Positions 40,765 through 42,214 of a stretch of 64,000 nt of DNA are shown here, piece after piece. Source of the stretch: Oceanispirochaeta sp. GTDB lineage: Bacteria; Spirochaetota; Spirochaetia; DSM-2461. The notes beneath the pieces are model-generated. The model was not told the origin of the DNA and made no database searches. It saw only the letters and a program-made list of their open reading frames with translations. The stretch lies in NCBI GenBank assembly GCA_963666275.2, contig CAXXOA010000001.1:544001-608000 (forward strand), written 5' to 3'. Position numbers and translations under genes: made by a program. Positions within the stretch are counted from its first letter, which is position 1. Each line of letters opens with the position of its first letter.

Positions 40765-40840
40765 GGGTCGGGGGCTATAGCGATAGACCCCGACTCCTAT
40801 AGCGATAGACCCCGACTCCTATAGCAAGTAGCCCCGACTC
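40765..40840. repeat. REP-like palindrome with three tandem 22-bp right-arm units
   Basis: GGGTCGGGGG then CTATAGCGATAGACCCCGACTC x2 (40775-40818) and variant CTATAGCAAGTAGCCCCGACTC (40819-40840). Confidence 0.85.
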
Positions 40841-40888
40841 AGGCAGTTTTCTATTCCATCAATACTGCAGCTGTCTTATATTTAGTGT

Positions 40889-41407
40889 ATGAATACAAAC
40901 AATGAACATGCTATTGAACCCCTTGTGGATACGGACACTATTATGGAAATTCTGGGACAGATTACCATATTGGGTGGTCTGAATGAGGATGAACTGAACT
41001 TTCTATTCAAAAAGATGAATAAGATCCGCTACAGGAAAGGGGAGATTATCTTTTCCCGGGGTGATAGGGCCTCTTACATATACATTGTGAAATCCGGGAT
41101 GGCGAAGATGTACATTGAAGAGGATCAGACCGCTTTTGAGCTGGCTGAGTTCCGGGTGGGCCAGTGTTTCGGCGAGACTTCTCTAATCGGCATTCAGCCC
41201 CAGTCGGCTACGATTATCGCCGAGGAAGACTCGGAACTTATTATCTTTTCCGGATCGGCCCTGCATTCCCTATACAAAGAGAATGTGCAGCTCTTTTCGA
41301 AAATCCTTCTGAATATTGCCCGGGAGTCCTGCCGCCGTCTGGCCCAGACCGACGATGTGATGCTCCACTATGTGCTGGATGAGAAGAAGAGGGGACAGGT
41401 TTTGTGA
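40889..41407 (+). CDS. Stand-alone cyclic nucleotide-binding domain protein
   Basis: GEIIFSRGD, YIVKSG, GQCFGETSL, QSATIIA; no HTH. Confidence 0.88.
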   Translation: MNTNNEHAIEPLVDTDTIMEILGQITILGGLNEDELNFLFKKMNKIRYRKGEIIFSRGDRASYIYIVKSGMAKMYIEEDQTAFELAEFRVGQCFGETSLIGIQPQSATIIAEEDSELIIFSGSALHSLYKENVQLFSKILLNIARESCRRLAQTDDVMLHYVLDEKKRGQVL

Positions 41408-41421
41408 CGGGAACCCCCGGG

Positions 41422-41451
41422 TGATGGGGGGTATCGCTATACCCCCCATCA
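41422..41451. repeat. REP-like palindrome upstream of transposase
   Basis: TGATGGGGGGTAT-CGCT-ATACCCCCCATCA, perfect 13-bp arms. Confidence 0.85.
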
Positions 41452-41557
41452 TCACAAAACCATTACCCTCGATCAGAATTTATTGTCAAGTAAATTGAAG
41501 CATTACTAATATAATCAATGTTATAAAGAACAAATCCATATAAGAGGTTTGTTCAGG

Positions 41558-42103
41558 ATGAAGTCAAGAAAACATAACCGCCATTCCATTCGCCTGAAAG
41601 GATTTGATTACTCAAATACAGGGGCCTATTTCATCACTATATGTACAAAGTACAGAGAATGCCTATTCGGAGAGATTAAACATAAAAAAATGGAATTGAA
41701 TGATTTGGGACAAATTGTACTGGAAGAATGGTTAAATACTCAGGAAATCCGTCCAAATATTAAATGTGATATTTTTGTTGTTATGCCGGACCATTTTCAT
41801 GGGATCATTGAAATATTGGAGTATGGGGTGTATCGCAATACACCCCATACTCCAAGGACAACATTTATTCCCAATCCTCATATCACGAAAACAAGAATTG
41901 CAAGATTTGAATCTCCCTCAAAAAATTTAGGATCTATAATCAGAGGATTTAAAGGGGCGGCAACAAAAAAAATCAATTTGCATAGAAATACCCCAGGTCA
42001 ATCTGTCTGGCAAAGGGACTATTATGAGCATATAATCCGGAATGAAATTGAATACAGAAGAATTCATCAATATATTCTGAAGAATCCTGAGAAATGGCAA
42101 TAA
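41558..42103 (+). mobile_element. RAYT-like HUH Y1 tyrosine transposase (IS200 superfamily)
   Basis: RHSIRLKGFDYS, AYFITICT, VVMPDHFHGII (HUH), LGSIIRGFK, WQRDYYEHIIRNE, YILKNP (catalytic Tyr); no tnpB; flanking palindromes. Confidence 0.9.
41816..41855. repeat. REP-like palindrome in frame inside the transposase gene
   Basis: TTGGAGTATGGGGTGTAT-CGCA-ATACACCCCATACTCCAA, perfect 18-bp arms, encodes LEYGVYRNTPHTP. Confidence 0.9.
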
Positions 42104-42118
42104 GGTTTGGGGGTATTG

Positions 42119-42214
42119 CAGATGATCAGTGGGGGTGTATGGCAGTGGGGGTGTATGGCAGTGGGGGTGTATAGCAGTGGGGGTGTATAGCAATACACCC
42201 CCACTGATCATCTG
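42119..42214. repeat. REP-like palindrome with four tandem 16-bp left-arm units
   Basis: CAGTGGGGGTGTATRG x4 (42127-42190); right arm 42193-42214 is the exact reverse complement of 42119-42140. Confidence 0.9.

Follow-up and report, generated by a model that had tools for sequence, protein, structure and literature searches.

A probable subclass 2.4 REP-associated transposase and its small, probably drifting hairpin family in an Oceanispirochaeta genome

Transposases of the TnpA-REP (RAYT) type bind the foot, or tag, of REP hairpins base-specifically: in the accessible text of two studies (PMC3479197, PMC8266576), A3 and G4 of the foot select CT, and T2 and G4 select CA. In the Marinomonas enzyme, according to the available part of the latter paper, cleavage at CA persists when GTAG is changed to GTGG. 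REPs themselves have been reported close to the ends of genes, within genes and as tandem clusters (PMC3733652, in the portion available). The closest described systems form subclass 2.4 of Quentin et al. 2018 (PMC6006769), which corresponds to Bertels group 4 in Table 1 of that paper. As set out in its accessible sections, proteins of this subclass are marked by the motifs NH[IFV]H, WQ and YIxNNP, by a variable insert that separates beta3 from alphaC and by an 8-aa insertion at the end of alphaB, and have no tail; their REPs are long or 'double foot' (5' GT[AG]G, 3' C[TC]AC); and the 'unique feature' named there is the presence of in-frame REPs in the gene, generally in the HuH-Tyr interval and in a peripheral loop. 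The 16-mers flanking group 4 RAYT genes average 14 copies (Bertels et al. 2017, bioRxiv 10.1101/119735, available part). In our search, which covers few subscription papers, nothing further on subclass 2.4 came to light, nor any in vitro work on group 4.

The locus described here lies in a window of 64 kb (the whole stretch of DNA that was analysed). We consider it probable that the locus is a subclass 2.4 (RAYT group 4) REPtron with a small, drifting and probably low-activity REP family, an assignment made from motifs and the published description (our tree covered the protein's own homologues and two IS200 TnpAs). It shares with subclass 2.4 the WQ and Y-I-x-x-NP motifs, a variable beta3-alphaC insert, the lack of a tail domain and divergent paralogues, as well as long REPs whose stems have three G-C pairs at their base, a double foot, an in-frame REP between HuH and Tyr, and low copy number. 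It differs in having DHFH for NH[IFV]H, a C-terminus only 4 residues past NP, arms extended in three of the four window copies, and feet (GTCG, GTGG, GTATG, GATG) of which none is GTAG. The original prediction had implied that the arrangement was new; that implication is not supported, since an in-frame REP together with a double foot is a published hallmark of subclass 2.4 (PMC6006769, accessible text), and the locus adds one more example to a class described in 2018.

The order of elements is glyA, REP 1, a cNMP-binding-domain gene, REP 2, the transposase, and then a convergent gene of the arginase/agmatinase family:

40767..40794, no strand assigned: REP copy 1, double foot GTCG/CGAC, 14 nt 3' of the glyA stop
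40775..40840, no strand assigned: tandem array of half-REP 1, period 22, 3 copies
40889..41407, + strand: cNMP-binding-domain gene, flanked by REP 1 and REP 2; an adjacent gene and not demonstrably part of the element
41423..41450, no strand assigned: REP copy 2, feet GATG/CATC, 15 nt 3' of the stop of the cNMP-domain gene
41558..42103, + strand: tnpA-REP (RAYT) gene, probably of subclass 2.4 type, encoding 181 aa if started at ATG or 184 aa if started at TTG (41549)
41816..41855, no strand assigned: REP copy 3 (28-nt unit 41822-41849), feet (G)TATG/CATA(C), 18-bp perfect stem
42127..42192, no strand assigned: tandem array of the left half of REP 4, period 16, 4.1 copies
42177..42204, no strand assigned: REP copy 4, double foot GTGG/CCAC
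42119-42143 and 42190-42214: outer arms of REP copy 4, the right arm overlapping the stop codon of the agmatinase-family gene (42208-42210)

The transposase and the hairpin inside its gene

The protein carries the HUH motif D-H79-F-H81, W151-Q152, E157-H158, R161 and the tyrosine Y172 within YILKNP; the WQ region reads WQRDYYEHIIR, and the chain ends without a C-terminal domain. Both the class 2 signature Y-x-x-x-NP and the WQ motif are therefore present, with K replacing the consensus N of YILKNP at a position that is variable in homologues. In the HuH motif both histidines and the hydrophobic residue are retained and the consensus N is replaced by D; DHFH is found in 6 of 119 rows of homologues, and D stands at the first position in 13 of them (its own included). 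The HuH-to-Tyr spacing is 93 residues; among the 113 homologues scored, out of 119, the median is 91. NCBIfam model NF047646 (REP-associated tyrosine transposase) matches in two stretches with 67.4 bits (E=1.2e-18), which is under its cut-off of 80. A threshold of E<=1e-20 yields 4263 homologues. Identity to the best-scoring of these, the query itself aside, is about 48-57%, and several of them bear the name RayT.

The top match in the PDB, by sequence and by fold, is the E. coli TnpA-REP/RayT (subclass 2.2, 4ER8, PMC3479197), whose W94, Q95, E100, H101, R104 and Y115 align with W151, Q152, E157, H158, R161 and Y172, such that foot-contact residues and catalytic tyrosine are alike. Identity is about 21%, and the local protein is without the autoinhibitory C-terminal extension; the local REPs, by comparison with those of E. 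coli, are nearly perfect, unbulged and double-footed, one lies inside the gene, and there are only 6 copies.

Copy 3 begins in frame 5 codons after DHFH (41789-41800) and is translated as LEYGVYRNTPHTP; an earlier observation from the letters alone, that the copy at 41816 follows HUH in frame without disrupting the reading frame, thus stands, with an 18-bp stem. In an AlphaFold2 model (built from 76 of 120 listed sequences; mean pLDDT 84.6), the loop with the LEYGVYRNTPHTP peptide comprises residues about 88-120, has no secondary structure (block pLDDT 49-56), and sits between the strand 79-86 and the helix 124-143. The length of the insert varies widely among homologues (119 rows). The in-gene hairpin is probably tolerated because it lies within a peripheral loop. 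The original prediction of a REP-RAYT system with a REP in a tolerant loop gains support both from this modelled low-confidence loop and from the E-values, which favour NF047646 over the IS200 model.

Among 81 homologous loci (80 foreign and our own), 76 have an intact HUH-to-W frame, the remaining 5 having been dropped as not intact. A hairpin of at least 7 bp occurs in the insert of 59 of the 76 (own included), as compared with 209 of 1520 shuffled inserts; for the foreign loci alone the figure is 58 of 75. GT[AG]GGG is present in 38 of the 76 inserts, 32 of them in the Val-Gly frame used by copy 3, and the peptides expected from the local stem in either of two frames were matched, by a loose regular expression, in 56 of the 119 top homologues. 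Co-variation between the insert and the flanking palindromes was seen in part: at 20 of the 59 loci, against an expectation of about 3, the match between the insert and its own flanks ranks in the top 5%, and at 39 there is no such match.

Of the 38 genomes searched in the family, 1 has the core pattern of the hairpins (below), and of the 301 searched in the phylum, 4 have it. In one of the latter (L357) a 50%-identical homologue carries the stem in frame at the same site with GTAG as both feet. As evidence against tight linkage, a RAYT is near the stem at only 1 of the 51 loci from metagenomes, at none of the 26 from viruses and at 1 of the 3 from the phylum. Such rarity would be expected of dispersed REPs, yet it lends no support to linkage. 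At L357:900-2200, ORFs abut closely on both sides of the homologue that carries the GTAG stem, without intergenic space. In another relative (L084, G016:C1:1151155-1154634) several almost identical subclass 2.4 genes stand in tandem, separated by REPs, which is unusual for a low-copy family.

Horizontal gain of the transposase gene is likely: its GC content is 35%, against 47-57% for its neighbours, and of the 10 congeners searched 1 yielded a homologue. The agmatinase gene is present in 6 of the 10 congeners, and homologues of the cNMP gene in 3, at loci without a match for glyA, RAYT or speB. The synteny glyA-cNMP-speB was not found in the congener loci examined for an empty site. A plasmid search returned 6 distant records. 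Three paralogues, 37-44% identical to the query, bring the genes of this kind in the genome to 4, and this low identity argues against IS-like duplication. The motif NPxxWxxD is kept in 105 of 113 homologues and lost in the query; the three paralogues also lack the terminal Asp, which makes its loss weak evidence of decay.

The hairpin family and its feet

The window contains the core GGGG-NN-TAT-loop-ATA-NN-CCCC just four times, at 40770, 41426, 41825 and 42180, compared with no match in 100 dinucleotide shuffles. Four hairpins sharing one core, not noticed elsewhere in the window, had been described from the outset, and they are confirmed, the coordinates then given being the starts of extended arms. 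Their loops (AGCG, CGCT, CGCA, AGCA) all fit MGCN. The genome-wide search for the motif was carried out over 5.27 Mb: with the exact MGCN loop it returned the same 4 copies and no others, and with a free loop it added 2 distant ones, C1:956888 and C1:1250320, for a total of 6. Identity among the six is only 17-25 of 28; the highest value, 25 of 28, is that between the intragenic copy 3 and the C1:1250317 copy, which also have 4 nt beyond the foot in common. All five extragenic copies are within about 115 nt of a stop codon, and three of the five are between convergent genes. A half-hairpin array similar to those of the window adjoins the copy at C1:956888. Directly 3' of the transposase stop codon, positions 42104-42118 (a G-run, TAT and TGCA) may be a remnant half-REP.

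Contigs of the source sample agree with the stretch at every letter (0 differences). This makes an assembly slip at the hairpin locus less likely, although, coming from the same sample, they are not independent support. Three DNA sequencing runs contain the stretch, all of them from the source sample; a fourth contains next to none of it, and no RNA run is listed as containing it.

Parsed as foot-GGG-N5-loop-N5-CCC-foot, the six copies have, in order, the feet GTCG, GATG, (G)TATG, GTGG, GTCG and TCCG/TATG. GTAG is the foot of none of them, as the original prediction had it; to call the foot missing is nevertheless misleading. GT stands one or two bases before the G-run at 10 of the 12 local ends, against 710 of 9524 background G-runs, and it is preceded by a 5' A at 8 of these 10 ends, against 8 of 69 abroad. 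GTAG is present on at least one end in 43 of 69 distinct foreign copies of the stem, and in 10 of 51 metagenome loci it is paired with an NATG end. The core is therefore the stem of a GTAG REP family, given that 43 of 69 foreign copies keep the tag, and the foot is degenerate (GTCG, GTGG, GTATG) and not absent, given that 10 of 12 ends keep GT; as judged from these comparisons, the local foot appears degenerate and lineage-flavoured rather than missing. Identical non-GTAG feet on both sides characterize five of the six local copies, which are not independent of one another, as against 9 of 69 abroad. Copy 4 (GTGG...CCAC) agrees with the published double-foot definition GT[AG]G / C[TC]AC, and the other five do not strictly do so; the GTCG feet of copies 1 and 5, which are about 370 kb apart, are already listed for one subclass 2.4 protein (Table S1 of PMC6006769, in the part available).

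Readings of the locus

In the subclass 2.4 reading, the locus would comprise a gene for an HUH/tyrosine single-strand nuclease, likely acquired horizontally, and a six-copy family of double-foot REPs. If it acts as its E. coli and Marinomonas counterparts do, the enzyme would recognise a hairpin in single-stranded form together with its 5' foot, nick at a dinucleotide via Tyr172 and then rejoin the strands, and REPs would occasionally be copied to sites just after stop codons. The GTAG tag has likely drifted to GTCG/GTGG/GTATG; replication slippage after insertion would likely have generated the half-REP arrays, and template switching would likely have copied one arm over the other, in one direction or the other. 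Activity is probably low, or the system in decay, as hinted at by the divergence of the copies (17-25 of 28 identical) and the loss of NPxxWxxD. Against the assignment to subclass 2.4 stand the NF047646 score, 67.4 where the cut-off is 80, and the motifs DHFH and YILKNP, each one residue off the 2.4 consensus.

An unlikely, though credible, alternative is that the subclass 2.4 enzyme is still active and its tag has shifted or relaxed to (A)GT-N-G, with the third base ignored, a cut at CA predicted through T2/G4, and non-GTAG copies spreading. The absence of GTAG from the six local copies, when 43 of 69 foreign ones have it, would fit, as would the GT at 10 of 12 ends; the 5' A at 8 of those 10 (8 of 69 abroad) suggests feet that are not randomly eroded, and so favours a shifted tag. 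The distant GTCG pair and the pair that agrees at 25 of 28 positions and 4 nt past the foot suggest that non-GTAG forms have probably dispersed. Marinomonas TnpA cuts CA with GTGG too (PMC8266576, accessible text), and CA is found at the junctions of copy 4's 16-nt array; the junctions of the 22-nt array, however, are not CA, and 9 foreign arrays have no fixed boundary (0-9 nt from the foot). The copies, moreover, are only 6, diverged and mutually non-independent, the foot-contact residues are unchanged, and the C-terminus is short. Were the tag indeed shifted, the locus, with six substrates, one of them in the enzyme's own gene and with its arms rewritten, would be a compact system for the first biochemistry of a double-foot REP transposase.

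Returning to the subclass 2.4 reading, it has also to be set against an ordinary IS200/IS605-type element that arrived as a unit with copies 2 and 4 as its ends, which we regard as very improbable. The gene does share the HUH/Y1 fold with the TnpA proteins of that group (IS608, ISDra2) and has a Pfam Y1_Tnp match; IS200 TnpAs (E 1.2e-6) come narrowly after 4ER8 (E 3.3e-7) as fold matches; and the low GC and the single congener with a homologue are compatible with arrival as a unit. The motif, Y-x-x-x-NP and not Y-x-x-x-Q, largely refutes it. The IS200 model matches weakly (E=0.015), the HuH-Tyr spacing is longer, the gene is single-copy, and the hairpins are one repeated family instead of distinct left and right ends. 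No tnpB is found among the listed ORFs near the transposase, which within that scope upholds the earlier description of an HUH Y1 transposase without one. In a 38-row tree of the query, its own homologue set and two IS200 TnpAs, the latter pair is on a separate, fully supported branch with a length of about 10, and the rows nearest to the query are its own homologues; no supported clade contains the query, and its deep placement is not settled because of the long branches.

That the hairpins are unrelated host structures, stabilizing or terminating RNA and alike by chance, has scarcely any probability, for although the extragenic copies lie just past stop codons and three of five are between convergent genes, the pattern is absent from 100 shuffles and present in a single one of the 38 family genomes, the stem belongs to GTAG REPs elsewhere, one copy lies within an ORF, and none of the hairpins qualifies as an intrinsic terminator (the promoter and terminator scan of the locus was at chance level). 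A secondary, co-opted RNA role is possible.

Extended arms, half-REP arrays and other REPs in the genome

Pairing continues beyond the foot in three of the four window copies: by 6 bp in copy 3, by 10 bp across the array in copy 4, and in copy 2 as imperfect outer arms that span 41389-41470 and take in the stop codon of the upstream cNMP gene. Among the matches listed, foreign GTAG double-foot REPs provide 120 distinct examples from at least 136 loci, of which 5 are extended by at least 6 bp, against a null of 0.13% obtained by cross-pairing, and 84 have no extension at all. In another set, which includes related genomes, 12 of 31 symmetric REPs are extended against a null of 1.7%; an asymmetric control scan yielded just 4 loci. 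At one locus (L309) the right flank repeats, inverted and over 11 bp, a left flank that four homologous loci share with it. Two foreign copies of the stem (L155 and L162) have perfect inverted flanks reaching 51 and 25 bp past a 22-nt core, by arm extension or assembly artefact.

Template switching, in the form of quasi-palindrome correction, makes the arms of inverted repeats identical (PMC5941160, available text). The altered yet symmetric feet and the extended arms fit that outcome; the process described there is a general one of replication, outside the REP literature that we read, and its role here is inferred. We propose that the feet have changed and are nevertheless identical on both sides, and that the arms extend into the flanks, because one arm was copied over the other: the extended arms would fit template switching after insertion, which would also make a mutated foot symmetric. 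Two other candidates were rejected, namely that the arrays arose from breakage at a constant point 2 nt 5' of the foot (the boundaries lie 0-9 nt from the foot in 9 foreign arrays) and that double-foot REPs are formed by fold-back copying of the target flank at each insertion (84 of 120, among the matches listed, have no extension). The natural foot variants found here could serve to test how double-foot REPs are read, and the minority of such REPs with arms extended into their flanks suggests that template switching reshapes REPs after insertion; neither point alters the picture of REP/RAYT biology.

Further REP-like elements were noted in the same genome. A second paralogue of 2.4 type (L093, C3:27411-27989) has its own REP stem in frame, with a GATC loop; this stem has 5 genome copies, mostly without GTAG (at C1:113505, C2:19776, C2:1975893 and C3:28103, plus the one in L093). 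Judging from these GATC-loop REPs, foot drift may be genome-wide. Another paralogue (L099, C1:283438-284193) has a long insert of tandem 6-residue repeats past the HUH motif. Seven further Y1 genes (L180-L186), one of them truncated, have NHVH/NHIH and Y..NP and resemble subclass 2.1. At C2:1667468-1668083, finally, an ordinary gene is flanked by two CATG-loop double-foot REPs with GTAA and GTAG feet; no subclass 2.4 gene was found beside these REPs, which have extended arms and tandem half-copies.
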